Source of the DNA: a virus
Reading direction: 5' to 3' (one strand)
Length of the DNA stretch: 64,000 nt
Virus record (IMG/VR): IMGVR_UViG_3300045988_117710
Below, piece after piece: positions 3,520-63,258 of the stretch. How positions within the stretch are numbered: position 1 is the first letter of the stretch; each line of letters opens with the position of its first letter. Both the position numbers and the translations under genes were made by a program. The notes beneath the pieces were generated by a model. It worked only from the letters and a program-made list of their open reading frames with translations. It was not told the DNA's origin and did not search any database.

Positions 3520-3531
3520 TAGGAGTTGATT

Positions 3532-4154: not shown

Positions 4155-4177
4155 ATTCTAGGAATCATCGAGTTGAT

Positions 4178-4187
4178 GTCGTATAAT
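4178..4187 (+). promoter_or_regulatory. class-A promoter-like motif, second copy (GTCGTATAAT)
   Basis: Tandem copy about 20 nt upstream of the gene that starts at 4206. Confidence 0.4.
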
Positions 4188-4205
4188 TGATTGAGAGGTG
4201 ATATT

Positions 4206-6220: not shown

Positions 6221-6232
6221 AAGGAGGATTTT

Positions 6233-6610
6233 ATGGAATTAGAAAATAAGAATGGAGTTAAATTTAATTTAACTGAAGAAGAGTTTCTAGATGTTAGTGC
6301 TGCTGGATTACTTTTGGAACAAAGTTTTGTTGATTTTGAAGGAGAACCTAAAGACTTCATAGAATTAGCAAAGCTTCAAGTTCCACAACCAATGTTTTTA
6401 GATAGAACTGAGGAATCTTTATTACTTGGTAATTCTATCTTTATTGGTATTTGCACTTATGGTAAGGATTTTATAGACAAGATGCTTAAGGTTGATGATC
6501 CAACTACTGTAGTATTTAGTTTATTTAATTATTCTTTACAAATGATTGATTCTTTGACTAAAGATTCGTATAACAATGTAGAAAGTGAGGATGATAGTCA
6601 TGTTCAATAA
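6233..6610 (+). CDS. hypothetical acidic protein
   Basis: ORF with RBS AAGGAGG at 6222-6228. Confidence 0.5.
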
Positions 6611-11415: not shown

Positions 11416-14400
11416 ATGAATGGTAATCAATTAATTACAAAGCATTCTGCTAAATTTGATACTGTTGAGAAATCTAAAAGACCTGGAGTTCTAGCTACTT
11501 TGAGAGGTCCTGTTACTGGATGGAAACCTAATCGTAATGGTAGAACTTATTCTAGGGATTTATGGGTTAAAGCATTAAATTCTGATTATGTTAAGGAACA
11601 AGTTGCTCTTAATCATTTTGTTGGTGAAGCAGATCACCCAGAAGAAAGACTTGAACCAGTAATTCAAAATATGTCACACGCTATGAGAGATTTTGAATTT
11701 GATGATGCTAATCAAGAAGTTATTGCTACTATTGATATTCTAGATACTCCATGTGGAAATATGCTTAAGACTTTATATGATTATTCTGGAGCTTTAAGTT
11801 TTTCTACTAGAGGTTCTGGAGATGTTTTAGAAGATGGTGAAGTTGATCCAGAAACATATCAATTATTTGCCATTGATGCTGTTTTAAGACCAAGTTATGC
11901 AACAGCTACTGTTAGAAATCTTTTAACTGAAAGTGAATCTTTACATAAGAATAAAGATGTTAAGAAGGTTCTTGAATCTTATTCTGGTGAGAAAGAATTA
12001 GATGAGTCTGTTGATTGGGATTATTTTAATATATTCCATGATATTAACGATAAATATTTACCTGATTCTGGTGAAGGTGATAATATGGCCACTCAAACTG
12101 TAACAGCTGTTAATAAGTTAGTTTATAAGTGGTATAATGATGGTGATGTATATGATAATTCAACTGCTTCTGGTCTAGATGGTTGGGGAAATGATTTATC
12201 TGATTATGCTAACTGGCTTGCAAAGAATATAGATGGTTGTAAGGATATTCTAGATAGAATTTTTGAAATCCATTATGGTGATAATGGTGCTTATGAAGAT
12301 TTACTTAAGGATTTAGCAAATAATTGTTTAGATGAAAATTTACTTTCTGGTTTAGCTACTCAACCTAAGGAAGGTTCTGTTTATGAATGTTCTGGTGATT
12401 ATTCTTTTGATGAGAGTAGAAACTATGATGAAGAATATGATGAGTCTGAAAACTTAGAAGAGGTTGTTCGTGTATACGATGATGAGAAAGATTATAGTTC
12501 TGAATTAGAGGAAGTATTCAATATTGTTGGTGGTTTTATTAATAATGATTTCAAATCTAATACCAAGGATTATTTAAGATATTCTGGTTCTACTGATCGT
12601 GTAGATAGTAGTAAAGTATTTGATGGTTTAGCTAGTGCATTAGGAGCTGCTGGTTATATTGTTTCTAAAGATCGTGTTTCTCATGCACATAATATTGGTA
12701 ACAATAATGCCTATGAAATATTCAAGGATTCTGAATGTATTGGATTCTTAAATGTTAATAGTGGTATGTATGGTGAAGCATATGTATATGTTGAGAACCT
12801 ATCTAATGGTAGAGTTGGTGGTGCTTGGGAATTACATTCTAGAGGTACTTCTACTTTCAAAGAAGGTGAAGAATTAGGTAAGGTTAATACTAAAACTGAT
12901 TTATCAAAGAAATATATCTTTAATGACAAGGGTGTTGAAAGAACTGTAACTGAAGTTGAACCACTTGCTTATAGAGATGGATATAAGTTTAGAGAGATTC
13001 TAGATAATGGTTCAGTAGGTAAAGTTGTTCATACTATGAGTAAAGCTGATTTTGATTCTTTAAAGGAATTAACTGAAGATGCTGATAGTGTTGTAGCAAT
13101 TCCTGATGATGTTAAGGAAGCTGTTGAAACTGAAGTTTATGATGATAGAAACATTGATGTTAGAAGTTCTATGTTCAAAGGTAATGATTTTGTAGTTGAA
13201 GCTAGAAATGAGTTATCTGAAGATGAATTTACTAAGATTGTTGATAGAATTCAATATCATTTCAATAATTATGGTATTGTTTATGACTCTATTGAAGATG
13301 ATGACAATAATGTAATTGCTATTGATTGTGGTATGTCTGCTAGTGCTTATGAAGAGTACAAAGCAAATTCTGATGATTATACTCTTAATGATGAATCATT
13401 TACTATGTATAATGCTGATACAGATAAAACTGTTAGAGTTTACAAAGATGGTGGTAAATGGGTAGATGAAGATGGTAATCGTTATATGAGTTACCTAACT
13501 AAGTCTGATATTAAGAAGTATTTCAAAGGTAATTGGGTTGAATTAGATGAGTCTGAACAATTAAATGAGTATGGTGATACTAAAGATTATTCAGAAGATA
13601 TTCAAAAGTTATTTAAGAAATGGTTTAAGGATAATGCTGATTTAGGTATTCGTGCTTGGCAGGCAATGACTGATTCATATCATTTAGATATTGAAACTAT
13701 GGATAAGGGTGAAGGTTCTGAAAGAAGAAAACTTTACAAGGTTGTTAATAATTCACCATTTGTTGAAGTTGAAGATTGGGCTGATGAGATTGGTGAGTAC
13801 ATTGCAGATAATTTACATTCATTAAAGTATATCAAACATACTTTCAATGATAAGTCATTCTTTAGTGATGATGAAACTGCTGGTGATATTACTTGGTACT
13901 TTGTTCAACAAATTGGTATGCCAGATTTTGGTGATAATATATTTGATTCAGAGAAGTTATCTGAAGACAATGAACCTAAGACTACTAAAGAGTTTAGAAT
14001 TATAGATACTGAAACTGGTAAGATTCTTAAGGTATTTAAAGATGATGAAGAATCTAAAGGTTATGAAGAAATGAGAGCCATGGGTGAAGAACTTAAGAAG
14101 GCAGGTAAAGAAGATAACTTAATCTATAAAGAGTTTAAGGTTAAGAACAAACCTGAAAGACTTAAGGAAGATTCTACTTGGGCTGAGATTATGATTGATA
14201 GAGCTTTAGAGTCTGGTGTTAGAAAGACACAATATCAAGATGTTGATGGTGTTAAGGATCAGTATTATGTAGTTGCTAATTTCCAAGACGTTGGAACTAG
14301 AGCAGATGCAAGAAAGTATTGTAAAGCTCAAGGATGGAGTGCTGTTAATGATTCTACTTTAGATAAGGGAGTTATGTATAGATATCCTTTAGTTATTTAT

Positions 14401-15249
14401 ATTCCTGCTGATAAGCTTCCAGATGGTGTTCAAGTAATTAATGAAGCTGGTGTTAATTTAGATGTTAGTGCTGGTGTTGATTTACCAGATGATGCTGTTA
14501 GTGGTATTATAAGTGCTCTACCTGCATTACTTGCTTCTGATAAACCAGATTTTGATACATTCTGTGAAGAGAATTATGAAGCAATTAATAATGCTTATGA
14601 TGAATGTAAGGCAAGTGATTTAGGTATTTCAGTAGAAGAGTATTGGGCTATGGATGAACCTGTAGATCCTAAATACTGGGAGATGGTTGCTAGAGATATG
14701 TATGAAGATAGTAATAGTTTAGTTGAAGATGTTAATGATTCTCAAGAATACATTGATAAATTCAATGAACTATATAGCAAGTATTGTGTTGCTAGTAAAG
14801 AAGATGAAGAAGTTATTAAGTCTGAAGTGGTTGATTTACTTACTAATGCACCTGTAGGAACTGCTTTATATAGACTTTATAAAGATACTTCTAGTGGATG
14901 GACTAGTCGTGGTTCTTATTCTAATACTAGAACTGAAATTCATGAATATCTAAAGTCAGGTGAAAATGAATGGACAATTAATGGTCGTAAGAAAAATGAC
15001 ATGAGAGATGCTATGTTATCAATCTTATATAATCCTGGAGAGTTCATGACTAAGGAAGAAGCAGAAGCTCAAAAGAAAGAGCAATCTAAGAATGATACTT
15101 CTTCTCGTAGAGAGATTGTAAATGTTGGTACTGATTCAGCTGGCAATCCTGTAGGTAAGTCTACTAATACTGTAACTTATCCAAATAGAGAAGTTGAGTC
15201 TGTTGATTTCTTGGATGATTACTTTGCATATCATAAAGGTAACTTCTAG
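11416..15249 (+). CDS. putative prohead protease fusion protein: N-terminal HK97-family (S78/U35-like) prohead serine protease domain plus a ~1100-aa acidic extension
   Basis: Residues ~20-135 fit the prohead-protease pattern: G-x-(A/V)-x-x-W...R-x-G-x-x-x-x-x-x-W-x-K-x-L, then L-N-H (candidate catalytic His67), then G-A-L-S-F-S-T-R-G (candidate catalytic Ser). The remainder is Asp/Glu-rich and scaffold-like. C-terminus DDYFAYHKGNF. Confidence 0.45.
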   Translation: MNGNQLITKHSAKFDTVEKSKRPGVLATLRGPVTGWKPNRNGRTYSRDLWVKALNSDYVKEQVALNHFVGEADHPEERLEPVIQNMSHAMRDFEFDDANQEVIATIDILDTPCGNMLKTLYDYSGALSFSTRGSGDVLEDGEVDPETYQLFAIDAVLRPSYATATVRNLLTESESLHKNKDVKKVLESYSGEKELDESVDWDYFNIFHDINDKYLPDSGEGDNMATQTVTAVNKLVYKWYNDGDVYDNSTASGLDGWGNDLSDYANWLAKNIDGCKDILDRIFEIHYGDNGAYEDLLKDLANNCLDENLLSGLATQPKEGSVYECSGDYSFDESRNYDEEYDESENLEEVVRVYDDEKDYSSELEEVFNIVGGFINNDFKSNTKDYLRYSGSTDRVDSSKVFDGLASALGAAGYIVSKDRVSHAHNIGNNNAYEIFKDSECIGFLNVNSGMYGEAYVYVENLSNGRVGGAWELHSRGTSTFKEGEELGKVNTKTDLSKKYIFNDKGVERTVTEVEPLAYRDGYKFREILDNGSVGKVVHTMSKADFDSLKELTEDADSVVAIPDDVKEAVETEVYDDRNIDVRSSMFKGNDFVVEARNELSEDEFTKIVDRIQYHFNNYGIVYDSIEDDDNNVIAIDCGMSASAYEEYKANSDDYTLNDESFTMYNADTDKTVRVYKDGGKWVDEDGNRYMSYLTKSDIKKYFKGNWVELDESEQLNEYGDTKDYSEDIQKLFKKWFKDNADLGIRAWQAMTDSYHLDIETMDKGEGSERRKLYKVVNNSPFVEVEDWADEIGEYIADNLHSLKYIKHTFNDKSFFSDDETAGDITWYFVQQIGMPDFGDNIFDSEKLSEDNEPKTTKEFRIIDTETGKILKVFKDDEESKGYEEMRAMGEELKKAGKEDNLIYKEFKVKNKPERLKEDSTWAEIMIDRALESGVRKTQYQDVDGVKDQYYVVANFQDVGTRADARKYCKAQGWSAVNDSTLDKGVMYRYPLVIYIPADKLPDGVQVINEAGVNLDVSAGVDLPDDAVSGIISALPALLASDKPDFDTFCEENYEAINNAYDECKASDLGISVEEYWAMDEPVDPKYWEMVARDMYEDSNSLVEDVNDSQEYIDKFNELYSKYCVASKEDEEVIKSEVVDLLTNAPVGTALYRLYKDTSSGWTSRGSYSNTRTEIHEYLKSGENEWTINGRKKNDMRDAMLSILYNPGEFMTKEEAEAQKKEQSKNDTSSRREIVNVGTDSAGNPVGKSTNTVTYPNREVESVDFLDDYFAYHKGNF

Positions 15250-18007: not shown

Positions 18008-18061
18008 GGTTATAGTTGGAGGCAGGTATAACCACTGCACTAACGAGAAAGGTGGTATATT

Positions 18062-26204: not shown

Positions 26205-26234
26205 AAAGGGACTGGTTCTAGTCCCTTTATTTAT
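26205..26234. terminator. intrinsic terminator
   Basis: aagggact-ggttct-agtccctt hairpin, then T-tract. Confidence 0.6.
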
Positions 26235-26239
26235 ATATT
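26232..26239 (+). promoter_or_regulatory. class-B promoter-like motif TATATATT(ATTTTAGTTAA)
   Basis: Immediately upstream of the first MNKLFES-family gene. Confidence 0.4.
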
Positions 26240-26267
26240 ATTTTAGTTAATATTGAGGAGGATTTCA

Positions 26268-26576
26268 ATGAATAAGTTATTTGAATCTGTAGAAGGTTGT
26301 GACAAATATATTCTTTTAGAAAATGAATATCCTACTTCTATGAGTAGAGAGGAATATATTAGTACTTTAAAATCTAAAGTAAACAAGCTTGCAGATGAAT
26401 TTGCTAGTTTAGCTAATTTCTTTAATTCTTATATTGAAGATTCTGCTACTGGTGAAAGTATTGATTGTAATGAGTTTATTTGTATAGCTCAAGAAGAGTA
26501 CCCATTTGAAAATAGTTTTGATGAGAAAGCATATGAGTTTTCAAACTGGGCTGATAAGATTAATGAAATTAAGTAG
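26268..26576 (+). CDS. MNKLFES-leader family protein 1 (103 aa)
   Basis: True start is ATG 26268 after GAGGAGG (the track ORF begins at TTG 26253). N-terminus MNKLFESVEGCDKY. Confidence 0.6.
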   Translation: MNKLFESVEGCDKYILLENEYPTSMSREEYISTLKSKVNKLADEFASLANFFNSYIEDSATGESIDCNEFICIAQEEYPFENSFDEKAYEFSNWADKINEIK

Positions 26577-26585
26577 GAGGTAAAT

Positions 26586-29500
26586 ATGAACAAGTTATTT
26601 GAATCTGTTGATAATTTATTTGATTCTGGTAAGAGTCTTATTAATGAAGATTATCGTGATGATGTTATTAATGATTTAGGTATTGAACCTGGTTCTGATG
26701 AAGAAGCACAAGTTGATGAAATCCTTAATACAGTTCCAACTGTTTATGATGTTTTCACTTTATCTCAAGTTGATGTTAATGAGTATAAGTCAGATCTTTA
26801 TACTACTGTAGAAGATGAAGACCAAGCTTATGATATAGTTGCTGAACTTGGAGCTCAAGGTATTAATGCTTTTGTAGAAAGTAGAGATGCTAATGAAGAT
26901 GTTATAGTTCCTAACAATTTCTTATCTGGTCTTTATGCTAGGGATTTGAATGAATCTACTGAAGGGTTAAGTAAAGAAGATAAGATTTGTCGTTTAGAAG
27001 ATAAGATTAAGGAATGTAAAGATAGAATTGAAGAGATTGGTAATACTGAATTCTTCGATGATGGTTCTTATGAAGCAGGTTTAGAGTTAGAAGATAGAGC
27101 AATGGAAAGAGCTTCTCTTGAGTATGCTATTTCTGAATATCAAAAGGAAATAGATGAACTTAAAGGTGAAACTATTAATGAAGGTAGTAAGTTTGATTTA
27201 TATTCTATCAGAGGAGAAATCAGAGATGATGAAACTGGTAGATTAATGCTTCATACTAAGAATAAGAATAATGGGTTAGTTGGTTGTGCAAATTTCTTTG
27301 GTGATGGTTCAGATATGGTTACTGTTTACGAAGGTAATGGTGATGGTTCTGATGACAAGAGTATGGGATTCGATGAGTTCCTAGCAAACTATGATTATGT
27401 TCTTGCTGATGAAGATGAACAACCATTTGGTGTTACTGAAGCTTCTGAAGAGAAAGTATTTGTTAAGAAAGTTAAAGGTCCTAATGGTCAATTCTTTGAT
27501 GTTTATAAGAAAGATGGTAAGTTTGTGGATGAATATAATAATGAACTTACTGCAGAAGAATTAAAAGATTATAAGTTAGTTGAAGATGAATCTAATGGTT
27601 CTACTGCTATTTTATATCAAGTTACTCCTGGTAAGACTAGAGAATATGGTTTTGAATCTTTAAAGATGTTAGATAAGTTTGGTATTGAGCTTAGTTTAGA
27701 TAATTATACTGAAGTTGCTAATATTGATTATAGTAAGTATACAGATGCTACTGATACTAATGCAATTCTAGAAGCAATATTCAGAGAAGGTAATACTAAT
27801 CAAGATATGAGAGTTGAATTCCCTACTATGAGATCTGTTTCTATGTCTGATATTGTTTTATTAGATGGTAGATATTACTATTGTGATGACTTTGGTTGGA
27901 CAGATGTTACTGATCGTTTAACTGGTGTTAATGAGTCTGAAGGTGGAGATTTAAAATCTCAAGTTGTTGAGTATTTAACTTCTAAATATGGTGAAGGTTT
28001 TGAATTAGAAGACAATGTTAATGGTTTTACTAATCAAGATGAAATTATTGATTCTATTGTTAATTCTTATGAAGGAAATGAAAATTTAACTGTTGCTGAG
28101 TTTATAGATTCTTTAATTGAACCTCATGGTTTAATTGTTGTTAAGTCTAAAGGTTTATCTGAAGGTACTTCTGCTAAACGTATAGCAAGATATAATGAAT
28201 TTGATAATGGTAGAGTTTTACATTCTTGGAAAGATATGACAGATGAAGAAGCTGAAGAGCTTGCTAAACAAAAGTCAATTGAAGATCCAAATAATGTTTA
28301 TTATGTATGTAATGATAATGTTATGAATCCTACTTCTGATAAGGTTTGGTATAATGGTAAGTCTTATGATTTCAGTGATGTTAAGTTTAGTGAAACTGGT
28401 ACTTACTGTGAATCTGAAGAAACTGATCCTAGATTAGATACTTTTGCTGAGTTATATTATAAGTATCAAGATGGTGAATCTCATGAATGGACAAGAGAAG
28501 AAGTTATTGATTGGATTAATGATGAAATTAAGTTAGGTGATACTTCATTTACTTTAGATGATGAAACTATTGATTTATTATTAGGTTTCCAACATGATTT
28601 ACATCAAGCTGATATAGAAGATTTAGATGAAGCTTCTAAACCTTTAGTTAAAGATAAGTTCTATATTGATGGTGTTGGTCCAGAGTTTGATGGTTACCAC
28701 GATCCTAGTGTTCTTTGGAATGGTTGGGAATGTCCATTCTTTACTAAAGAGGTAGCAGATGAGATAACTAAAACTTTTACTGATGAGTCTGTTACTTTTG
28801 AATATGATGAAGCTGGTAAGAAATATATAATTACTTGGAATGGTGAAGATACTGAAGAAGTTCCTATGACACGTCGTGAAACTGTTGATGGTGAGTTAGA
28901 TTTATTCCCATTAGGTTATTATGGTTGGTGTTGGAATAAAGCTTCTGATGATTTAGAAGAGTCTAATAAATTAGATGAAACAGCTTGGAAGGGTACTCTT
29001 AAGTCTGGTTCTGCTTTAAGAGCCCTAATTAATAATCCAGATGATACTATTGAATATTATCAAGCTGTATTAGATAAGATTAAAGATGTTTGTAATGAAG
29101 CAATTCCAATGTGTGATGATGAATATTATGCTAATGGATTCCAATCTTTAATAGATGATATTGAATGTATTTATTATGATGAAGAATTAGATGAAGGTAA
29201 TGTTGATTATATTCTAGATGGTCTTTGGGATTGGGCTGATGGTGCTAAGTTATTCGTTGCCTTAGGTGAATCTGAAGTAGTTATGGAAGAAGATTCTAAT
29301 TATACTAATAAATATCGTTGTGTTACTGCAGGATATGATACTGTAGAAACATTTGATTCAAAGGATGATGCAATTGCATTTGCTAAAGAGAATGACAGGG
29401 TGTATTCAGTAATGTCTGATATTTATCAAGGTGATATGTTAATTAGTGTTGGATTAAATGATATTTGGTCTAAGTATGATGAAGATTTAACTGAAGCTTC

Positions 29501-29816
29501 TAGTGTAGATGGTTTAGTTACTAAGTTTGTTGAGTTACCATATGGTGATTTCAAAGCAAATAATGCCATTGGTGTTCTTAATGATGGTACAGTGTTTTGG
29601 GTAGATAGTGAGAATGAAGCTTATTCAGTTCCTTGTTCTTACGATGAGTTAAAGAGAGCAATGTATGGTAAAGAACAAGATGATTGGATGGAATTTTCTC
29701 AAAGTTTCACTAGAATAGAAGACCCACTAGAAACTAAGATTATGGTTGCTATTGGACGTTACTCTGAAGATGTTCTAGATTATCATGAAACTTTTAAAGA
29801 TGGGTTACCATTCTAA
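26586..29816 (+). CDS. MNKLFES-leader family protein 2, giant member (1076 aa)
   Basis: N-terminus MNKLFESVDNLFDSGKSLINEDYRDDVINDLG. Acidic, with a coiled-coil segment (ICRLEDKIKECKDRIEEI...). No recognisable catalytic motif. Confidence 0.6.
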   Translation: MNKLFESVDNLFDSGKSLINEDYRDDVINDLGIEPGSDEEAQVDEILNTVPTVYDVFTLSQVDVNEYKSDLYTTVEDEDQAYDIVAELGAQGINAFVESRDANEDVIVPNNFLSGLYARDLNESTEGLSKEDKICRLEDKIKECKDRIEEIGNTEFFDDGSYEAGLELEDRAMERASLEYAISEYQKEIDELKGETINEGSKFDLYSIRGEIRDDETGRLMLHTKNKNNGLVGCANFFGDGSDMVTVYEGNGDGSDDKSMGFDEFLANYDYVLADEDEQPFGVTEASEEKVFVKKVKGPNGQFFDVYKKDGKFVDEYNNELTAEELKDYKLVEDESNGSTAILYQVTPGKTREYGFESLKMLDKFGIELSLDNYTEVANIDYSKYTDATDTNAILEAIFREGNTNQDMRVEFPTMRSVSMSDIVLLDGRYYYCDDFGWTDVTDRLTGVNESEGGDLKSQVVEYLTSKYGEGFELEDNVNGFTNQDEIIDSIVNSYEGNENLTVAEFIDSLIEPHGLIVVKSKGLSEGTSAKRIARYNEFDNGRVLHSWKDMTDEEAEELAKQKSIEDPNNVYYVCNDNVMNPTSDKVWYNGKSYDFSDVKFSETGTYCESEETDPRLDTFAELYYKYQDGESHEWTREEVIDWINDEIKLGDTSFTLDDETIDLLLGFQHDLHQADIEDLDEASKPLVKDKFYIDGVGPEFDGYHDPSVLWNGWECPFFTKEVADEITKTFTDESVTFEYDEAGKKYIITWNGEDTEEVPMTRRETVDGELDLFPLGYYGWCWNKASDDLEESNKLDETAWKGTLKSGSALRALINNPDDTIEYYQAVLDKIKDVCNEAIPMCDDEYYANGFQSLIDDIECIYYDEELDEGNVDYILDGLWDWADGAKLFVALGESEVVMEEDSNYTNKYRCVTAGYDTVETFDSKDDAIAFAKENDRVYSVMSDIYQGDMLISVGLNDIWSKYDEDLTEASSVDGLVTKFVELPYGDFKANNAIGVLNDGTVFWVDSENEAYSVPCSYDELKRAMYGKEQDDWMEFSQSFTRIEDPLETKIMVAIGRYSEDVLDYHETFKDGLPF

Positions 29817-29829
29817 TTAGGAGGTTAGT

Positions 29830-30162
29830 ATGAATAGTTTATTTGAAAGTGTTGACGCTTGTTTTGAATCTGATGTTATAGTTGAATCAGATTCAAAACT
29901 TGGTTCTATTTTTGTTGCTGAGGTTGGTTACAATGGTGTAGTCGGTACTTGTAGAGGTGCTGGTTCTACTCCTGAAGAAGCCAAAGCAAATGTTATTAAA
30001 TTCTTCAAGCAAGTTTATCCTAGTGTATTAGAAGATTTATTAACTAAAGAAGATTATCAAGATGTTTCTGAAGATAAAGCTCTTGAAGATTGGTATGGTA
30101 TCAATGTATTCGATTTAAGTTCTGGAGCTACTTGTGAGAGTGGAGAAACTTTAAAAGGATAA
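29830..30162 (+). CDS. MNKLFES-leader family protein 3 (110 aa)
   Basis: N-terminus MNSLFESVDACFESD. RBS TAGGAGG. Confidence 0.6.
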   Translation: MNSLFESVDACFESDVIVESDSKLGSIFVAEVGYNGVVGTCRGAGSTPEEAKANVIKFFKQVYPSVLEDLLTKEDYQDVSEDKALEDWYGINVFDLSSGATCESGETLKG

Positions 30163-30165
30163 TTT

Positions 30166-30495
30166 ATGAATAAGTTATTTGAAAGTATAGATAATTTATT
30201 TGAATCTGATATTCTAACTCTAGATGACTTCCTTAGTCATCTAGATGCCTATATGGCAGAGCAATCTATTTTCTTTGAACCATTAGGTGGTTATATTGTC
30301 TATGATGGAGAGTATAGGTTTGTTTATTATGAATTATTAGATACTAATACAACTTATAGTCGTGATGCAAAGAGAAAGCATTATCGTATATTAAGTTATG
30401 ATGGTTCTACTTTTGTTGAGAATCGAATTACAGCTCCTATGTATAATGACTATATTAGATTAGGCATGGTTAGGGAGTATAGTAGAGAGGTATAG
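30166..30495 (+). CDS. MNKLFES-leader family protein 4 (109 aa)
   Basis: N-terminus MNKLFESIDNLFESD. Confidence 0.6.
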   Translation: MNKLFESIDNLFESDILTLDDFLSHLDAYMAEQSIFFEPLGGYIVYDGEYRFVYYELLDTNTTYSRDAKRKHYRILSYDGSTFVENRITAPMYNDYIRLGMVREYSREV

Positions 30496-30504
30496 GAGAT
30501 TATT

Positions 30505-31002
30505 ATGAATAAGTTATTTGAGTCTGTTGATGACTTATATGAATCTGGAAGAAGTTTAGTTGTTGAAGATACTGAAGATTTTGTAGATGATGTTATTACT
30601 GATCCTTATGATTTAGGGTTTACTGAAGAAGATTTACAAAATAATCTTAATGTAAAGTTTACTGAATATGGTGAATTAGATAGTGCTGAACAAGAAGACT
30701 TTCCAGAATGTGATGCAGTATTATATTTTGATGTTTACTATGGAGATTCTAAAGTTGGTGAAACTCAATGTTATGGTGCTAAAGAAGATAATGTTGAAGA
30801 GTATTTTCCTCAAGTAATTGAAAATCTTGTTGGTAATACTTTTGGGTTAGACTTTAGTGAAATTAAGAAAGAAGAAAAACCTTTAGGTGAATCTATTGAA
30901 TATTGTTTAGTTTTACCAGAAGTAAAATCTGATGAAGAAATGAATAAGGTAATTGAAGCTCTTAAGGATTTAGGTTACGAAGCTTATTCTTGGACTCGTT
31001 AA
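30505..31002 (+). CDS. MNKLFES-leader family protein 5 (165 aa)
   Basis: N-terminus MNKLFESVDDLYESGRSLVVEDTEDFVDDVITD. The leader homology with member 2 extends to about 35 aa. Confidence 0.6.
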   Translation: MNKLFESVDDLYESGRSLVVEDTEDFVDDVITDPYDLGFTEEDLQNNLNVKFTEYGELDSAEQEDFPECDAVLYFDVYYGDSKVGETQCYGAKEDNVEEYFPQVIENLVGNTFGLDFSEIKKEEKPLGESIEYCLVLPEVKSDEEMNKVIEALKDLGYEAYSWTR

Positions 31003-37684: not shown

Positions 37685-38146
37685 ATGGAGAAGATTGCAA
37701 GTTTTACTGTAGATCATACAGTTTTGTTACCTGGAGTGTATATTAGTAGGGTTGATGAAGATATTGTTACTTATGATATTAGAATTAAGCGACCTAATAC
37801 TGATGATTTGATGTCTAATGAGGAGATGCATTCGGTTGAGCATTTATTGGCTACGGCATTGAGGAATTCTTATCTTAAGGATGATGTTATTTACTTTGGT
37901 CCTATGGGTTGCCAAACGGGTTATTATTGTCTTATGAGAGTGGATTCTGGGTTTAATTTTATGAAGTTTCTGAAGGATGTTATGATTTATGCTCTTTCTT
38001 TTGATTCTATGCCAGGTCAATCTGCTGTTGAGTGTGGTAATTATAAGAATTTAGATTTAGAATTAGGTAAGTCTTGTATTAAGAATTACTTGAATTTACT
38101 TGATTCTTTTGAGGATATTTGTGAATATCCAAAGAAACTTGATTAA
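37685..38146 (+). CDS. luxS: S-ribosylhomocysteine lyase (LuxS) homolog
   Basis: SFTVDHT matches the LuxS N-terminus. Metal-binding HxxEH is present as HSVEH. The catalytic-Cys context GPMGCQTGYY matches SPMGCRTGFY. CGNY matches CGTY. 153 aa. Confidence 0.8.
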   Translation: MEKIASFTVDHTVLLPGVYISRVDEDIVTYDIRIKRPNTDDLMSNEEMHSVEHLLATALRNSYLKDDVIYFGPMGCQTGYYCLMRVDSGFNFMKFLKDVMIYALSFDSMPGQSAVECGNYKNLDLELGKSCIKNYLNLLDSFEDICEYPKKLD

Positions 38147-38683: not shown

Positions 38684-40336
38684 ATGAATAATTTTTATGA
38701 TTCAATTGATAAAGTAGATTTCACTTCTATTTTTGAGGAAGACAACAATATTTCTCTTGATGATGTAAAGTTTTGTAAAAATTGTTTTAATGAGTTTAGT
38801 GGCGAAGGTGACATATGTCCATCTTGTAGCAAACTAAATGAAGAAATTCCTGCAGAAACAAAATTGATTCTAGATGCAGTTAGAGAATTTGAAAACCAAT
38901 TACCAATGTTTGGTTATTCAGATCCTACTGAACTTAGTTATGAAGAACAAGAAGAACTTCTTACTGATACAATGAATTTTGTATATGGTGAAAACAATTG
39001 GTCAAAGAAAGAATTCAATGATGTTGCTAGAGAGTTAGGAATTCCTGGAATCATTAAAGAGAATGTAGAAGAAGATATTTCTGATTTACAATCTGCTTTA
39101 TCTGAACTTAAACAAGGTATTGAAGGTTTAGAAAAGACTGATGATGTTTCTGATGAAGATACTTTCGAGTTCAGAGGACAAAAGTATACTAAAGAGAAAG
39201 CACAAAAGGAAATCGACAAGATTGAGAAAGATTTAGATAATCTTAATCAAGAAAAGGTTGATGACTTAGATAATGCATTCAATGATAATACAATCACTGA
39301 ACCTGTTGCTTCTGAACCTGTTGAGGAACCTGCTGCACCTGAACCAGTTGAAGTTGTAGATGGTGTTATTGATCCAACTAATGGTGATGCTGGTCAAGCT
39401 ACTGATGTTGATGTTATTGATGGTGTTGATCCATTAAGTGATATTGAATTAGCTGCTGAAGAACCTAAGGAAGAACCTAAAGAAGATACTGAAGATTCTA
39501 AAGAAGATTCTAAAGAAGATGAAGGTTTAAATGAAGCAATTCAAGCCCATGTAACAGTTGATAATATTGACCAAGAATCTAAAGACAAAGCAACTATTGA
39601 AAAGGCAATTGCTTTAGCTGGTGATAAGAATGTTATCGATAATGATACTTTCAGAGCTTTACGTTTAGCTCTTGCTAATAAAGATTATGACTTAATTGAT
39701 AGACTTAAAGATTATGCATTAGTTCGTGGTGAAGATGTAGTTTACACTTGGTTACGTGCTGAAGATTCTAATCTTAAGGAATCTGCTAGTAGCAAGAAGT
39801 TCTGCTTAGTTGAAGGTGTTGATTGTGGTACTTGTAAAGAAGAAGTTCTTGAAGAACCTGAAGATGATGAAGTTGTTGAAGATGGTGCTTTACAAGTTGA
39901 TGATGTTCCTGCCAAGGTTGATCAAGGTAAACCTGGTAAACGTCTTGAATTAGCAAGACTTGAAAATGAAGGTGTTGTTTCTTACAGAGTTTCTTATCTT
40001 AAAGAAGATGATGAAATTATGGGTTGGGATATAGAAGCTGATTCTGATGAAGAAGCTTTAGATGCCTTAGACAAGTTTGATGCTGCAAGTGATACAATAG
40101 ATGGTGTTTCTAATTTAGAGTTTAATGATACTCCTATTGCTGGAATTAGTTCTACAAGTTACAATGGTGTTGATTTAGCATTATCTACTGCTGAAGATGG
40201 AAACGCTTTATTAACTATTACTACTCAAGAAGGAATTCCTGTACTTTTAAAAGGTGAAAACCTAGACGATATATTGACTAAGTTAATTTATTGGTTTATA
40301 ATGGGTGCAGAGAGTACTTGCAAGGAGGTAATGTAA
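38684..40336 (+). CDS. acidic protein with N-terminal zinc ribbon and Pro/Glu-rich linkers
   Basis: CKNCFNE...CPSC, EPVEEPAAPEPVE and KEEPKEDTEDSKEDSKEDEG. Confidence 0.5.
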   Translation: MNNFYDSIDKVDFTSIFEEDNNISLDDVKFCKNCFNEFSGEGDICPSCSKLNEEIPAETKLILDAVREFENQLPMFGYSDPTELSYEEQEELLTDTMNFVYGENNWSKKEFNDVARELGIPGIIKENVEEDISDLQSALSELKQGIEGLEKTDDVSDEDTFEFRGQKYTKEKAQKEIDKIEKDLDNLNQEKVDDLDNAFNDNTITEPVASEPVEEPAAPEPVEVVDGVIDPTNGDAGQATDVDVIDGVDPLSDIELAAEEPKEEPKEDTEDSKEDSKEDEGLNEAIQAHVTVDNIDQESKDKATIEKAIALAGDKNVIDNDTFRALRLALANKDYDLIDRLKDYALVRGEDVVYTWLRAEDSNLKESASSKKFCLVEGVDCGTCKEEVLEEPEDDEVVEDGALQVDDVPAKVDQGKPGKRLELARLENEGVVSYRVSYLKEDDEIMGWDIEADSDEEALDALDKFDAASDTIDGVSNLEFNDTPIAGISSTSYNGVDLALSTAEDGNALLTITTQEGIPVLLKGENLDDILTKLIYWFIMGAESTCKEVM

Positions 40337-42288
40337 TGAAAGTTAAAGTAAATAAACTTGTTAAGGAAGCTGACATCGCTGTTGATACAAATTTAATAGA
40401 TATGGGTGAAGGTTCTAGTTTTATTACTGGAACCGAAGCTCTTACTAAACTTAAATCTTTAGAAGTTGGTATGCCTGTAGTTGTTAAGTGGGGTACTGAA
40501 AGTAATTCACCTGCTAAACAATCTATTTTTGTTGGTATTGCTGAAGGTCCTTATGGAAACGTTTTCGATTTCTATGATGGTGAAGGTGTTACTGGTATTT
40601 CTTCTGCTTCTGAAGGATTTATTAAGAATGGTAAGGTGTCATTTGATTTTGATAATAATGACGCTACTGAAGTTACTAGATTAACTAATGAAGTTAAGAG
40701 TCAATCAGGAATAGTTGAAGAATCTGCTGAAGGTTCTGAAAAGACTTTCTCTCAATGGTTTGATGAAACTTATCCAGAAACTCATGATGTTAGTAGTGGT
40801 GAATTCTATCCATTTACTAATTATATTAAAGCATTTCCAAATGCTGCTTGTCTTAAAGATGCAACTGCTAAAGACATAAGAGCAAATGCTAGTAAGTTCT
40901 ATGATGTTTATGATGTAGACTCTGATGATAGAGAATATGCATTTATTTTTGCTAGTGAAGAACTAGGTATAGATTATGATGAATTATACTATGCTTGGTT
41001 ACATGGTGAAGATTCTGAATCTCTTAATGAAGGTGAAGCTTTCTATAAGATTCCAGAAGATTTACAAAAGATTATTGATGGTTTCTCTACTAATGTAGAT
41101 GATCCTATGTATGATAATGGTTATGAAGTTCCAGATGAACTTTTAGATCTTGCAAATAATCCACCTAAGAATATGAGAGTTAAAGATTGGATGAGAATTA
41201 TAGCTCCATTTGAATATCAATTAGATCGTATTCCATCAGATATTACTTTCGAAAACCTATATAATGGTATTGATGATGGATTCTTAACTAATATTGATTC
41301 TGATCCTAGAAATGAAGTTTTAGATAAGCTTTATGATATCTATGATTTAGATAAGGATAAAGAATTAGCCAATAAGATTTGGACTAGTTTAGGATTTGAA
41401 AGATGGTTTGAATCTGAAGAACCTAAAGTTTCTGAAACTGCAGTTGAAAGTAGATTATTAGATTTAGTTAAAACTGTTAATTCAGAGTATTCTTTAGACA
41501 ATGTTCAATTATATACTACTGATAAAGGTAATTATAATATTAGAACTAAAGCTGATGAATCTAATCCAATTGGTAAGGATATTGTTACAGTTTCTTATAG
41601 TGCTTTAATTAAAGATGAAGATGATGAAATTGCTTTACGTGATTTAGGTTACTTTGATGATTATATTAATAATATGATTAATGGTTCTGAAGGATTAACT
41701 GAAAGTGTTATTCCTGCTAGTAACTTAGATTTTGCTCATCAAGAGTTAGCAATTATTCAAAGTGAGATTGAAAAGATTGCTGGTCTTAAGTCTGAAGATA
41801 CTGCAAATGATTTATATACTGATTTACTTGAAGTATTAGACAAAGCTGTTGAAGTTCTATCTGACCATATAGCAGAACAACCTATAGGAACTGTTGTTGG
41901 TGATGAACCAGCTCCTACTCCTGTAGAACCAACTCCAGAATTACCAATGGATATGCCTATGGGTGAATCTGAAACTCTTACTGAGGATGAAGATACTTTA
42001 GAGGCAATGTGGACTGCTGTATGTAGTGGTGATGCTGATACTATTAAGAGTATGTATGATAATGGTGTAATTCAACCAAACACTAGATATGAACGTTTTG
42101 GACATAATAATTCATTTATAATGGGTGCTTTAAGAAATGGTGATTTTGATACTGCAGAGTTATTAAAGAACTACGGTGAAACTATTTTAAAAGCAGAGTT
42201 AGATGAATATAAGTCAATTATGGCAAAGCGTAATTATGAAGATGAAACTACTAAGTCAGCATTAGATGAAAATAAGAGTGCTGAATAA
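40336..42288 (+). CDS. large hypothetical virion-associated protein with possible C-terminal ankyrin-like repeats
   Basis: Start ATG 40336 overlaps the upstream TAA. C-terminus (GHNNSFIMGALRNGDFDTAELLKNYG) resembles an ankyrin repeat. PT-rich linker EPAPTPVEPTPELP. Confidence 0.45.
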   Translation: MKVKVNKLVKEADIAVDTNLIDMGEGSSFITGTEALTKLKSLEVGMPVVVKWGTESNSPAKQSIFVGIAEGPYGNVFDFYDGEGVTGISSASEGFIKNGKVSFDFDNNDATEVTRLTNEVKSQSGIVEESAEGSEKTFSQWFDETYPETHDVSSGEFYPFTNYIKAFPNAACLKDATAKDIRANASKFYDVYDVDSDDREYAFIFASEELGIDYDELYYAWLHGEDSESLNEGEAFYKIPEDLQKIIDGFSTNVDDPMYDNGYEVPDELLDLANNPPKNMRVKDWMRIIAPFEYQLDRIPSDITFENLYNGIDDGFLTNIDSDPRNEVLDKLYDIYDLDKDKELANKIWTSLGFERWFESEEPKVSETAVESRLLDLVKTVNSEYSLDNVQLYTTDKGNYNIRTKADESNPIGKDIVTVSYSALIKDEDDEIALRDLGYFDDYINNMINGSEGLTESVIPASNLDFAHQELAIIQSEIEKIAGLKSEDTANDLYTDLLEVLDKAVEVLSDHIAEQPIGTVVGDEPAPTPVEPTPELPMDMPMGESETLTEDEDTLEAMWTAVCSGDADTIKSMYDNGVIQPNTRYERFGHNNSFIMGALRNGDFDTAELLKNYGETILKAELDEYKSIMAKRNYEDETTKSALDENKSAE

Positions 42289-53151: not shown

Positions 53152-53868
53152 ATGGTAGTTGTATATGGTGTTAATAACAAGTGGAGTGATTATGTACTTG
53201 TTTCGATTAAGTCTTTAGTTACTAATAATGATGTCAGTAAGATTTATCTTTTAGTTGAAGACTTTATTGATACTAGTATGTTTTCTTCTATTGATATTGA
53301 ACAGATTAGATATGTTGATGCCTTGTCAACATATATCAATTCTACCAATAAGAATACTTTCTTTAGTGAAGCTTGTATGGTTCGTTTATTGCTTCCAAAG
53401 CTTCTGAAGGAAGATAAGGTTCTATGGTTAGATTCTGATACTATTGTTGATGGAAGTATTGAGGGGTTGTGGAATATAGATTTGAGTAACTATTATGTAG
53501 CAGGTTATCCAGATTCTGGTATGGATAGTTATTCTGGTTATAGTCGTGAGGGTGAGTCATTAGATTTGTATATTAATAGTGGAGTGTTACTTATGAATCT
53601 TTCATTGATTAGAGAGTGTTCTGTTGATGATGAGATGTTTAGGTTGATTAACTCTTATGAGTATTTATATCCAGATCAGGATGTTATTAATGTTTCTTGT
53701 AGAGACAAGATTTATCCGATTTCGATTATTTACAATTATTTTGATTTCAATAGAAATATTGATAATATAGTCATTTATCATTGGGCTGCTCAAGATAAGA
53801 GTAATTGGGTATATGATTTACCTTTTGGTGATAAATGGATTAAGTATAAGGAGATGTTATATGAATAG
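53152..53868 (+). CDS. family GT8 glycosyltransferase (LPS alpha-1,3-galactosyl/glucosyltransferase-like)
   Basis: GT8 N-terminal Rossmann region, DxD motif LWLDSDTIV, and YINSGVLLMNL. Confidence 0.65.
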   Translation: MVVVYGVNNKWSDYVLVSIKSLVTNNDVSKIYLLVEDFIDTSMFSSIDIEQIRYVDALSTYINSTNKNTFFSEACMVRLLLPKLLKEDKVLWLDSDTIVDGSIEGLWNIDLSNYYVAGYPDSGMDSYSGYSREGESLDLYINSGVLLMNLSLIRECSVDDEMFRLINSYEYLYPDQDVINVSCRDKIYPISIIYNYFDFNRNIDNIVIYHWAAQDKSNWVYDLPFGDKWIKYKEMLYE

Positions 53869-55309
53869 GTTATTTGAGTCTGTTAATAGTTTCTTTGAAT
53901 CTGATGGTTTAGACAAGATTAGTGAAGATTTTATTCCTAATTCTCTTAATATTTGTTGTCCTGAATGTGGTTCTAATGAATATTATGAAATAGATGGTGC
54001 TGAGTATGATGATTATCAAGAAGTTATCTACAGATGTGAGAAATGTGGTCATGAAGAGAAAGATGAGATTTCTTTTGATGAGTTAGAAGAGTCAGATAAT
54101 TCTCAAGCCACTATTTTAGATTTTGAAGAAACTGGTGGTGGTTGTCTTAATTATGTAGGTGAAGTTGGTGATTACAACTTTGTTGGTGAAATTGATGGTA
54201 TTTTAGAGTTCTTTGATAAGAAGTTTGGTATTACTTCTTGGGAAGCTTATTCTAATATTGAAGATGAAGCTTACGGTGCTTACTCAGATTATGTTGAGAC
54301 TGGAGAATATAATGGTAAGTATGATAAAGATATTCAAGGTACTTATGATTTTGAACAAAAGTATGCTGAGTATAAACCAGAATATGTTTCTGCTGTTGCT
54401 GATGCTCTTAAGTCTTATGCTGATAGTAATATAAGTAATTTCGTTTATTCTTCTTTAGTTTATGACGAAGTTGAGAGATTAAAAGGTTCTTTAGAAGAGT
54501 CTACTCTTGTTGAAGCTGGTTCAAAGATAGATCCTGCCAAAGCATATGTAACTATTTATACTAATTATTATGATGGTATGGGTGATTTTAGTGATAGTTA
54601 TGAGTATATCACAAGTCTTGCTGATGATTGTGGTATTGAGTTTGATGAAGATTCTATTGATTCTTTTAGAGAGTTAAATTCTTTAGCAAATAAGGTTATC
54701 GCTTTTATTTATAATAATCATCCAGATATGTTTAGAGATATTTGTTCTGATTTAATTGATTCTATTGATGTTGACTATCTTGCTGATACTTTAGAACATA
54801 AACAAGGTGTAGTTGAATGCTTTAATGTTCTTAAAGATTTTGTTCCTGATTCAAGTAAGGTTGATGAAATACTTTCTAAATTACAAAGTGTTAATGTTGA
54901 TATTAGATTAATTGCTCAAGAATTTCAAAGATATTTCCATGATAATTATGAACCATGGACTTTCCTAGGAACTACTACTGGACCTAGAGTTTATAATGGT
55001 TTATTCGAATGTCCTACAGATTATGAAGTTGTTTCTGCTGATTATTTTAACTATGCTGGTAGACCTTCTGATATGTTAGATCATATTGGTTATGGATGGA
55101 AACAAACTGATAATGGTGTTCAAGCTGATTTAATTGGATTTAGACATAGTAGTAATGGTCATGCTGCTGTATATGACCAACCTCCTGTTGCTTATGGATA
55201 TTCTACTGTTGTTAATAATTCTAACAAGGAAGAGAAGTTCAAAGAAATGGCTGATACTCTAACTTCTAAAGCAAAAGAAATCAAGAGTCAATATAATTTA
55301 GGTAAATAA
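53861..55309 (+). CDS. MNKLFES-leader family protein 6 (482 aa) with zinc ribbon
   Basis: True start ATG 53861 (MNRLFESVNSFFESDG) after AAGGAG, overlapping the GT8 stop. Zinc ribbon CCPECGSNEYY...RCEKCGHEE. Confidence 0.6.
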   Translation: MNRLFESVNSFFESDGLDKISEDFIPNSLNICCPECGSNEYYEIDGAEYDDYQEVIYRCEKCGHEEKDEISFDELEESDNSQATILDFEETGGGCLNYVGEVGDYNFVGEIDGILEFFDKKFGITSWEAYSNIEDEAYGAYSDYVETGEYNGKYDKDIQGTYDFEQKYAEYKPEYVSAVADALKSYADSNISNFVYSSLVYDEVERLKGSLEESTLVEAGSKIDPAKAYVTIYTNYYDGMGDFSDSYEYITSLADDCGIEFDEDSIDSFRELNSLANKVIAFIYNNHPDMFRDICSDLIDSIDVDYLADTLEHKQGVVECFNVLKDFVPDSSKVDEILSKLQSVNVDIRLIAQEFQRYFHDNYEPWTFLGTTTGPRVYNGLFECPTDYEVVSADYFNYAGRPSDMLDHIGYGWKQTDNGVQADLIGFRHSSNGHAAVYDQPPVAYGYSTVVNNSNKEEKFKEMADTLTSKAKEIKSQYNLGK

Positions 55310-55310
55310 T

Positions 55311-55340
55311 AAGGAAGTTTTCTTCCTTTTTCTTTTGCTT
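55311..55340. terminator. intrinsic terminator
   Basis: aaggaag-ttttc-cttcctt hairpin, then TTTTCTTTT. Confidence 0.55.
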
Positions 55341-55354
55341 TTATAATGTTTTAT

Positions 55355-55362
55355 TATATATT
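55355..55362 (+). promoter_or_regulatory. class-B promoter-like motif TATATATT(ATTTTAGTAAG)
   Basis: Upstream of family member 7. Confidence 0.4.
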
Positions 55363-55388
55363 ATTTTAGTAAGTATTGAGGAGATTAT

Positions 55389-56153
55389 ATGAATAAGTTA
55401 TTCGAGTCTGTTGATAATCTTTTCTCAAGTGATTCTAACCTTATTCTTGATGCTGAAAAGGAAAGAAAAGATAGAGTCGCTAAGTTAAGAGAATCTGTTA
55501 AATTAAGAAAGTTAGAAGAATCTGAAGATAAGAAATCTCTAAAAGAGCATAGTTTTGATACAGATTCAGATCCTGTTGAAGTGTTAAAAGCAATTCATGA
55601 ACAATATATGGATTTAGGTATGAACGATGAGTTCTATAATGATGTTCTTAATAGATCTGATTTAGGTATTGAAGATTTAATTAGTTGGTTAGAGATGGGT
55701 GAATCAGATAAGTGTGCTAAACCTGAAAAGAAAGATGTTCTAAAAGAAAGTTCTGAAATGTGTGTTGCTATGGAATGTAGTAGAACAGGATATGGTCCAG
55801 ACCAAGTAGTTGGTGATTCTATGACAGTTAATGAACTTATTGATGTTCTAAATGGTTTCGATGGAGATATGAAGATAGTTACTAGTCATGATGGTGGTTA
55901 TACTTATGGACCTATAAGTTATGGTGATTTCGAAGAAATCAATGTTAGTGACGATGAAGAATCTGAAGATGAGGATTATAATGAATCTGAAAAAGTTTCT
56001 CATAGAGTTAAGGAAAATGAAGAAACTAGATTATTCAATAAAGTAGCAAGAATTTGTGAGTCTAGAAAAGCAACAAATAATGTTGTTAAAGAATCAAATG
56101 CTAATATATTAAAGAGAGCTGGTAAGAAGCCAGTTAATAAGAAAAGTTTATAG
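55389..56153 (+). CDS. MNKLFES-leader family protein 7 (254 aa), highly charged and helical
   Basis: N-terminus MNKLFESVDNLFSSDSNLILDAEKERKDRVAKLRESVKLRKLEESEDKK. Composition is charged, coiled-coil-like and scaffold-like. Confidence 0.6.
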   Translation: MNKLFESVDNLFSSDSNLILDAEKERKDRVAKLRESVKLRKLEESEDKKSLKEHSFDTDSDPVEVLKAIHEQYMDLGMNDEFYNDVLNRSDLGIEDLISWLEMGESDKCAKPEKKDVLKESSEMCVAMECSRTGYGPDQVVGDSMTVNELIDVLNGFDGDMKIVTSHDGGYTYGPISYGDFEEINVSDDEESEDEDYNESEKVSHRVKENEETRLFNKVARICESRKATNNVVKESNANILKRAGKKPVNKKSL

Positions 56154-62085: not shown

Positions 62086-63258
62086 ATGTTGAAAAGTTTA
62101 AAAGGTAAAGTTATTACAGCTGAGTCAGTTTCAGTAGGACATCCAGATAGTTACATGGATTATGTTGTTAACAGTTGTTTGGATGCAGTTATGGGAGCAG
62201 ATCCTAGTGCCAGATTTGCTTGTGATGGTGTTGCGAAGGATAAGAAAGTAGTTCTTGCTGGTGAGATTACTACAACTAATGAAAATCTTAAAGAATTACT
62301 TAAGTCTACTGTTTTAGAAGCAACTAAAGAAGTAGGATATGAATGGGAACCAGAAGTTCAATTAGAAGTTTATCAACAATCACCTGATATTGCATTAGGT
62401 ACTAATGATGGTATGGGTGAACAACTTGGAGCTTCTGACCAAGGAACTCAATCTGGTTATGCTTGTAATGAAACTGATGAATACTATCCATTAGTTAAAG
62501 CAGTGGCTGATGAATTAGTTAGAGAATTATTCTTCAAGTTCAAACATGGAGAATTTAAAGATGCGAAAGCAGATATTAAAACTCAAGTTACTATTGATTA
62601 TACAGGAGATGTTCCTAAAGCAAAGACAGTTGTAGTTGCTGCAAGTCATGCTGAAGATTTCAATGAACCTGAATTCAAGATGTTTATTCAAAGAGAAGCA
62701 ATTACTATTCTAGAAAGATTTGGTGTAGATGCTTCTGATGTAAGATTTATTATTAATGGAACTGGTAAATTTACTATCTATGGTCCTATTGGAGATTCTG
62801 GTGAAGTTGGTCGTAAGATAGTTGTAGATGCTTATGGATTACATCCACTTGCTACTGTTGGTGGAGGTACATATAATGGTAAGTATGCTGGTCATGTTGA
62901 TCGTGTTGCTGCTTATGGATGTCGTTATCTAGCAAAGAATATAGTAGCTGCTGGGTTAGCTGATGAATGTCGTATTGATGTTGCTTATTGTATTGGTATT
63001 TCTGAACCAATGTCTGTAAGATTTGATTTCAATGGAACTGCTCATATAGATGAAGAAACAATTATTGCTAAGGCATTAGAATTATTTAGCTTTACTCCAT
63101 ATAACTTAAGAAAGATGTTCACAATGGGTGATTTTGCAACTGCTGGATTAATGTGTCACTTTGGTGAGACTAATAAGTTAAGTTTACACAATGGTGAACC
63201 TGTTGCAATTCCATGGGAGCAATTAGATTTAGTTGATGAATTAAAGAAACTTGTATAA
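62086..63258 (+). CDS. metK: S-adenosylmethionine synthetase (MetK) homolog
   Basis: ESVSVGHPD matches SESVSEGHPDK. GEITT is present. [12 protein letters not shown] matches [19 protein letters not shown] matches [42 protein letters not shown] matches [35 protein letters not shown]. Confidence 0.85.
   Translation: [390 protein letters not shown]

Follow-up and report, generated by a model that had tools for sequence, protein, structure and literature searches.

Seven proteins of an uncultivated myovirus begin with a common leader that may target modular cargo to the capsid

The 64,000-nucleotide (nt) stretch of IMG/VR virus record IMGVR_UViG_3300045988_117710 analysed here, referred to as the window, encodes seven open reading frames (ORFs), m1 to m7, which are arranged in two loci and are headed by the same N-terminal leader, MN[KRS]LFES[VI][DNE]. 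It is reasonably likely that this leader is a capsid-targeting propeptide, carried by accessory, polyprotein-like cargo proteins that are packaged in the head. The phage is an uncultivated, AT-rich myovirus of ~180 kb, which recurs in many human metagenome assemblies; the G+C content of the window is 31.7%, and nearly all of its genes lie on the + strand. Dozens of near-identical contigs of 179-189 kb are present in the ENA and Logan assemblies (ERZ24773290 NODE_84 and ERZ28654774 scaffold_111 are examples of ~182 kb), the sample names of which refer to human metagenome studies and suggest the human gut as the source; the host is probably an AT-rich Firmicute. A DNA similarity search against cultured phages gave no match, nor did a search of IMG/VR with the sheath protein, and the portal has no more than about 27-30% identity with its counterparts in Bacillus, Listeria and cyanophage myoviruses.

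The consensus of the leader comprises 14 residues, MNKLFE|SVDNLFE|S (the bar denotes the putative cut), and its fuller peptide pattern is MN[KRS]LFES[VI][DNE]x[LFC][FY][EDS][ST]. The degenerate pattern ATGAAYARRYTNTTYGA occurs at seven sites in the 64 kb as compared to 0.13 expected from shuffles, which bears out the preliminary description of this DNA in so far as m6 and m7 were said to carry the same leader within a two-locus family. The members of locus 1, m1-m5 (102, 1076, 110, 109 and 165 amino acids (aa); 26268..31002, + strand), are tandem genes that immediately precede those for the large terminase and the portal, and their leaders start at 26268, 26586, 29830, 30166 and 30505 by pattern match. 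The second locus holds the leaders of m6 (MNRLFESVNSFFES; 53861..53902, +) and m7 (MNKLFESVDNLFSS; 55389..55430, +), that of m6 being a putative capsid-targeting propeptide with two hydrophobic-x-E|S sites. As motif matches only, each of the seven members has LFE|S at residues 4-7, and four also have a second site, [LF][FY]E|S, at residues 11-14.

Behind the leader the bodies are unrelated, all-vs-all BLAST having detected no similarity among m1-m7; the leader is hence not an ordinary divergent N-terminus. The family is acidic throughout (17-27% Asp + Glu versus 7-15% Lys + Arg), and its longest member has 1076 aa. At the DNA level, the leaders of m6 and m7 have 31 of 42 nt in common with a longest exact run of 11 nt, and any pair shares 26-36 of 42 nt with a longest run of 19 nt, so that the identical 5' 40-nt sequence reported previously is not borne out. 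The codon differences are synonymous (Ser TCT/AGT, GAA/GAG, TTT/TTC, TTA/CTT and AAT/AAC), which indicates that selection acts on the peptide and not on the nucleotides. An RNA-level element was rejected on account of this synonymous variation, and a secretion signal because the leader is acidic and amphipathic and has no hydrophobic core.

The strict leader DNA pattern had no match in IMG/VR, and the degenerate pattern, scanned in JGI metagenomes and GTDB genomes, hit almost only unrelated genes, with a maximum of one match per contig; these included a PTS EIIC gene (MNKFFEWMEE...) and an internal ...NKLFETIDVV... motif, besides two short true fragments (L046 and L050). In distant lineages, homologous modules stand behind other shared leaders (MNLYETIK..LKES and MKLYENIK..LKENE), again in tandem genes, and a leader that differs by lineage is the behaviour that would be expected of a targeting peptide co-evolving with its receptor. 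Within the window, a 550-aa acidic protein with a CxxC...CxxC ribbon (38684..40336, +) starts with MNNFYDSIDKVDFTSIFEED, in which Asp replaces the leader Glu; this N-terminus is invariant in five strains, and from its sequence the protein may be an eighth, degenerate member of the family. The adjacent 650-aa protein (40336-42288) has a C-terminal region of ~90 aa (..AVCSGDADTIKSMYDNGVIQPNTRYERFG..) that shares 54% identity with the C-terminus of P0005, a relative of m7 that bears the leader; modules therefore occur in leader and non-leader proteins alike.

A modular construction is evident in m6 (482 aa; ORF 53861..55309, +; ribosome-binding site (RBS) GGAG at 53850-53853, 7 nt upstream of the ATG). 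The leader is followed by a TFIIS-like zinc ribbon (~aa 30-67), a LEES linker, module B (~81-209, beginning ATILDFEETGGG), a further LEES and module C (~223-482). Both linkers are putative prohead-protease sites: L75-E-E-S78 lies between ribbon and module B (54083..54094, +), and the homology to P0009, P0010 and P0011 begins immediately behind it, while L211-E-E-S214 lies between modules B and C (54491..54502, +), where homology to P0007 and P0008 starts. In P0007-P0011, modules B and C occur alone or reordered, each time flanked by L[KNE]ES. The AlphaFold (AF2) model of m6, with a predicted local distance difference test score (pLDDT) of 67, has low-confidence stretches at residues 1-31, 68-80 and 210-222, and these coincide with the L-x-E-S sites. 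The ribbon has the form CPEC...CEKC, with zinc-ribbon family matches that are weak and below the cut-off; Foldseek searches of BFVD and PDB with the model yielded no significant match outside the ribbon, for which only local TFIIS-type matches were obtained.

A similar arrangement is displayed by m7 (254 aa; ORF 55389..56153, +; RBS GAGGAG at 55378-55383), in which the leader precedes a charged helical segment with LRES and LEES, a module, LKES, a core of ~70 aa belonging to phrog_3939 (aa ~125-195), and an acidic and basic tail. Its helicity is uncertain because the AlphaFold model has a mean pLDDT of 43 and is unusable. The phrog_3939 core is the sole widely conserved part, with 240 representative matches, most of which are stand-alone proteins of 65-100 aa. 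The leader, the charged helical stretch and the C-terminal 210 residues are common to m7 and its close relatives, in which different modules of 11, 130 or 160 aa are inserted at the LEES near residue 41, so that strain forms of 265, 384 and 415 aa occur besides that of 254 aa; P0004 has modules of m7 relatives in permuted order. The ORFs, the cysteine motif and the composition of m7 (23% Asp + Glu, 15% Lys + Arg) agree with the earlier account of m6 as a 482-aa protein starting at 53861 with a CxxC...CxxC ribbon, and of m7 as an extremely charged protein of 254 aa.

In T4 the consensus for prohead cleavage is Leu/Ile-x-Glu. In the proteins of the window L.ES occurs 35 times as compared to 10.0 +/- 3.1 after shuffling of each protein (3.5-fold), and L.ES[VI][DEN] 11 times as compared to 0.3 in shuffled proteins. 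In BLAST comparisons of m6 and m7 with P0001-P0011, the borders of many homology blocks are only a few residues away from an L-x-E-S site. A scan of IMG/VR with the coding pattern of MNKLFES[VI][DE] gave only two matches. One of them, an isolated ORF in an apparent eukaryotic giant-virus contig, is probably due to chance. The other falls within the gene of a 624-aa protein that is homologous to jumbo-phage major capsid proteins, and reads ...IPNMNKLFE96|S97VDSPG. The homologues of this protein are the annotated major capsid proteins of Chryseobacterium phage MA9V-2 and Tenacibaculum phages PTm1 and PTm5, and gp156 of Sphingomonas phage PAU. Since the motif is at residues 96/97 and conserved homology to the family profile starts at residue 98, the hexapeptide sits at the expected capsid propeptide cut of another phage with an S77 protease, which lends independent support to the motif as a cleavage site. 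Relatives of the protein read KNLFE|SVSxPG at the same place; the PAU/Tenacibaculum-type capsid homologues have an N-terminal region of ~96 aa ending in (K/N)(K/N)LFE|SV (L005 10001-11875, L006 9989-11833 and L008 9986-11818). The 624-aa capsid gene is downstream of genes for a T4-type portal, an S77 protease and a Gln-rich scaffold-like protein, and the scaffold-like neighbours of the capsid homologues carry D-x-LFE|[SA] and L-N-E|S.

A protease of the same type is encoded in the window (11416..15249, +; 1277 aa), where a T4 gp21-like prohead protease domain (Peptidase_S77, aa ~1-175) is fused to ~1100 aa of acidic modules. The domain was assigned by PF03420 (28.7 bits, cut-off 27) and phrog_207, head maturation protease (E = 9e-32), and the putative catalytic His in GEADHP aligns weakly with the corresponding position of T4 gp21 (PDB 5JBL). 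Four x-E|S sites, including ELDESVD, are located at aa 170-198, just after the protease domain, the place at which the T4-like and giant-phage proteases process themselves (PMC5694885). The protein measures 965, 1052, 1113, 1121, 1129, 1133 or 1277 aa among the strains, and in the window copy an additional module of 136 aa is inserted behind ..YDESENLE. The portal of the phage is also of the T4 type (PF07230). Directly upstream of the protease gene, two very acidic proteins of 447 and 287 aa (9201-11400) are candidate prohead core or scaffold proteins: the former has 29% Asp + Glu and a KSKKK repeat, and the latter carries DLTES and ILNESVD sites. Family searches with both gave no match; in position they resemble T4 gp67, gp68 and gp22, and they are better candidates for scaffold or core than m7.

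Comparison of strains reveals that the leader genes behave as accessory and hypervariable ones. At locus 1, five strains match the window, L010 and L016 are devoid of m3, and L013 and L017 are devoid of both m3 and m4 and have a shortened m2, the lengths of which are 610, 686 and 1076 aa. Three deletion junctions at this locus, which include two independent ones, fall inside the RBS-leader segment, with crossover points that differ between L013 and L017; the RBS-leader repeats therefore mediate cassette loss. The in-frame deletions of m2 in two strains join at VTEAS|, LDEAS| and LTEAS|; two of the seven m2 junctions are within three residues of the strict motif L.E[SA] (p about 0.02), and five of the seven when the looser x-E-[SA] is used. 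Locus 2 is less variable, m6 having 482-483 aa in all strains and m7 occurring in four lengths. The earlier proposal that the two dispersed loci could serve as recombination hotspots for cassette exchange is thus supported in part by comparative genomics. Cassette loss (m3, or m3 and m4) at the RBS-leader repeats and length forms of m7 are observed; exchange between the two leader loci was not seen among the strains compared, m6 is constant in close strains, and m7 gains and loses internal modules while its body is not swapped. The neighbourhood of locus 2 is variable too, as the GT8 gene upstream of m6 is absent in strain L021 (between 1875 and 1980). In strain L017, the large terminase gene (3422-6853) contains an intein with a LAGLIDADG endonuclease and encodes 1143 aa as compared to 602 aa.

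From these features the following course of events may be proposed. The leader would bind the assembling prohead core, whereby the protein behind it is enclosed in the head. The S77 prohead protease would then remove the leader by cutting after Glu in hydrophobic-x-Glu|Ser, giving peptides that start with Ser7 or Ser14, e.g. SVDNLFSSDSNLILDAEK and SDSNLILDAEK. In this scheme m6 and m7 would be late-expressed cargo (ejection) proteins consisting of small modules strung on L-x-E-S linkers, and the same protease probably cuts these linkers, which would set free single domains that pass into the host along with the DNA. Short homologies for the loss, gain and reshuffling of cassettes and modules would be provided by the repeated RBS-leader segments and the linkers. 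Core binding, cleavage, packaging and ejection, as well as any anti-defence role, are presumed from the architecture and from the analogy with known phages.

The genes flanking locus 2 and the signals between them are in accordance with the earlier account, which had placed m6 and m7 between a GT8 glycosyltransferase gene and the sheath and tube genes, and had them separated by a terminator and a class-B promoter. The upstream gene matches Glyco_transf_8 (GT8; Pfam E = 4e-25), and its stop codon is overlapped by the m6 ATG by 8 nt; the genes for the tail sheath (phrog_23) and tube (phrog_45) are located downstream of m7. A terminator-like hairpin, AAGGAAG-TTTT-CTTCCTT (55311-55328), and a T-run following it occupy 55311..55338 (+) between m6 and m7, and the 24-nt class-B (putative late) promoter motif TTATATATTATTTTAGTAAGTATT is found at 55354..55377 (+), upstream of m7. 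The latter motif recurs only upstream of m1, with two degenerate positions (26231..26254, +), where it is preceded by a hairpin GGGACT..AGTCCC. The class-B consensus, TATATATT-N2-9-TAG[TA]A, has six matches on the + strand, each of which is followed by a start codon at a distance of 27-35 nt; the motif precedes the terminase gene, several genes of the structural block, m7 and, as a near variant, m1, and is suggestive of a late promoter. A second motif, TCGTATAAT, is found 12-45 nt before many non-structural (replication-type and small) genes, with 17 matches on the + strand and 3 on the - strand. It occurs in many intergenic regions, examples being those at 4146, 15272, 18961, 24294, 35036 and 61370, and probably represents an early or middle promoter class.

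Among its other genes, the window encodes a GroEL/Cpn60-like chaperonin (16415-17887), a LuxS-family protein (37685-38146) and an S-adenosylmethionine synthetase (62086-63258). Beyond its 3' end, the related contig L021 has a Clp_N/AAA ATPase adjoining a proteasome-family (HslV-like) protein, and also encodes a ribosomal protein L9 homologue and a Thg1-like protein (L021 genes at 13205-15051, 16713-17156 and 18022-18876).

Several observations weigh against a capsid-targeting propeptide. The evidence that m1-m7 enter the virion and are cleaved is indirect, the putative sites being motif matches, and the leader has no sequence similarity to the capsid-targeting sequence (CTS) of T4. The internal proteins of T4 are small and basic, whereas m1-m7 are acidic and have up to 1076 aa. 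A search of the window and of 10 kb to each side did not reveal the major capsid protein of this lineage; the cleavage specificity of the phage's own protease is therefore deduced from distant relatives, whose protease domains are 26% identical. The capsid gene of the L005 group is likewise too distant as a bait, as BLASTP does not align the portals of the two groups and their proteases have 26% identity. L-x-E-S is short and the proteins that contain it abound in E, S and L, and the analysis of boundaries, being partly post hoc and finding the strict motif at two of the seven m2 junctions, is supportive rather than decisive. Searches of NCBIfam, Pfam, PHROGs and PDB sequences, as well as Foldseek, gave no function for the modules of m6 and m7, the m7 model being of low confidence.

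A shared N-terminus may also act as some other tag: a degron for the Clp_N-AAA/HslV-like pair, a helix for oligomerisation or localisation, or a tag for the neck or tail. Such a role is quite improbable, although the Clp_N/AAA and proteasome-family proteins are encoded just beyond the window, m6 and m7 belong to the neck/tail gene block beside the sheath gene, and the link of the leader to the head is indirect. It leaves unexplained the occurrence of hydrophobic-x-E|S at a capsid propeptide boundary, after the protease domain and at module linkers, and the first locus adjoins the terminase and portal genes, not tail genes. Conservation at the nucleotide level, i.e. a translation-initiation or regulatory RNA element or a gene-converted recombination site with a peptide devoid of any role, would suit the cassette deletions at the RBS-leader repeats and the 24-nt upstream motif common to m1 and m7. 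This explanation is very improbable, as the extent of nucleotide sharing is limited, the changes are synonymous and include the TCT/AGT serine switch, and in distant lineages the design of the peptide is retained although its sequence differs; recombination looks like a by-product.

The leader proteins may, on the other hand, constitute the prohead core or scaffold itself, which is chopped at L-x-E sites and expelled, and is not delivered to the host. This would follow the same logic of targeting and cleavage as a propeptide on cargo, and the acidic core proteins gp22, gp67 and gp68 of T4 are indeed cut to peptides by gp21 (PMC5694885, PMC7411985). The many candidate sites per protein and the 38% charged residues and long predicted helices of m7 (the latter from a model of pLDDT 43) are in line with such a role, which was also the one suggested by the preliminary description for m7. 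Scaffolds are, however, conserved and essential, while here cassettes are absent in some strains and modules vary; modules B and C of m6 and the core of m7 have the appearance of compact folded domains. It is unlikely that m7 is a scaffold, because it is strain-polymorphic, its conserved core is a widespread stand-alone domain and it matches no scaffold family in Pfam or PHROGs; it adjoins the sheath gene, 40 kb from the protease gene, and better core candidates adjoin the latter at 9201-11400. We therefore regard a scaffold role of the leader family as unlikely, and of the earlier phrase "scaffolding or core" the first half is not upheld, whereas the second comes closer, in the sense of the T4 internal proteins riding in the prohead core.

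If the leader is a capsid-targeting propeptide as favoured here, the T4 principle of capsid targeting would extend to an uncultivated lineage of large phages. It would also provide a sequence rule by which packaged or injected proteins can be recognised in metagenomic phage genomes, namely a shared N-terminal label ending in hydrophobic-x-Glu together with an S77 protease. A pool of unannotated small domains, among them modules B and C of m6 and the widespread phrog_3939 domain, would then be candidate effectors of early host takeover or anti-defence, and the leader would be usable as a tag to load foreign proteins into such phages. A more far-reaching possibility, which we put forward tentatively and would not yet favour, is an "address label and perforation" system, in which anything behind the leader is loaded and the protease doubles as a polyprotein processor; the many small acidic effectors so produced, which might be DNA mimics or anti-defence proteins, would be injected along with the genome. 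A further ~1100 aa of such cargo would be carried by the protease itself, and the repeated labels and linkers would make the cargo re-assortable between strains.

The closest parallel is offered by the internal proteins and Alt of T4, which have an N-terminal CTS of 10-20 residues that binds the prohead core and is removed by gp21 after Glu; the N-terminal 'LIE-9' of gp21 itself also fits the gp21 cleavage logo (PMC9026906, PMC5694885, PMC7411985). In T4, an Asp at the cut position prevents processing yet leaves targeting intact (PMC9026906). Both systems place a short N-terminal peptide with a hydrophobic-x-Glu site on unrelated proteins and have a protease of the gp21 family. The genes of T4 Ip1-3 are similarly accessory and distributed over two loci, have only the packaging leader in common, and are hypervariable among T-even phages, with >30 variants; repeated promoter and stem-loop elements form their cassette borders (PMC12373910, PMC2839356), comparable to the repeated regulatory sequences seen here. 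The T4 CTS (MKTYQEFIAE) is, however, unrelated to the present leader, which is longer and has two tandem LFE|S-type sites. The T4 Ip proteins are small, basic and single-domain, whereas the cargo described here is acidic, has up to 1076 aa, is made of modules on L-x-E-S linkers and is preceded by a promoter motif of the class found before structural genes. In view of the unrelated leader and the large acidic proteins, the family is an analogue and not a homologous member of the T4 Ip family; what is new with respect to T4 is the unrelated leader, the acidic, multi-domain and polyprotein-like cargo, and the fusion of the protease to ~1100 aa of variable modules.

In the giant phages phiKZ, 201phi2-1 and SPN3US, the propeptides of ejection and inner-body proteins are also removed by a homologue of gp21, which recognises a short motif and cleaves behind its Glu, with multiple sites per substrate and a self-processed C-terminus, and the SPN3US paralogues gp53 and gp54 have an identical 15-aa N-terminus, MANFVKSKLARESVE, with cleavage motifs (PMC5694885, PMC7411985). 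In these phages the motif is S/A/G-x-E or A-x-E and the propeptides are mostly longer than 100 aa, whereas the leader described here has ~14 aa and stands on 7-8 unrelated proteins, and the protease itself carries the variable modules.

The polyvalent proteins described by Iyer, Burroughs, Anand, de Souza and Aravind (2017) are likewise large, with a reshuffled domain order, and are predicted to be packaged and delivered at invasion, proteolytic release of their domains having been proposed (PMC5512222). Several domains per polypeptide in a variable architecture are also seen in m2, m6 and m7, the relatives of which have lost, gained or rearranged modules, and m2 contains a YodL-like domain (E = 1.6e-8), a domain known from polyvalent proteins of Firmicutes conjugative elements (PMC5512222). 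They differ in that no module of m6 or m7 matches a described polyvalent domain; searches of Pfam and NCBIfam with m6, m7 and their homologues gave no MuF, ArdC-N, zincin-like metallopeptidase, YodL or LPD domain. Targeting would be effected by an N-terminal CTS instead of a MuF or portal-associated domain, and, as no metallopeptidase or built-in processing domain was found here, the prohead protease would process the cargo at L-x-E-S. If this holds, prohead proteases can process multi-domain cargo at linkers, as an alternative to the metallopeptidases of polyvalent proteins.

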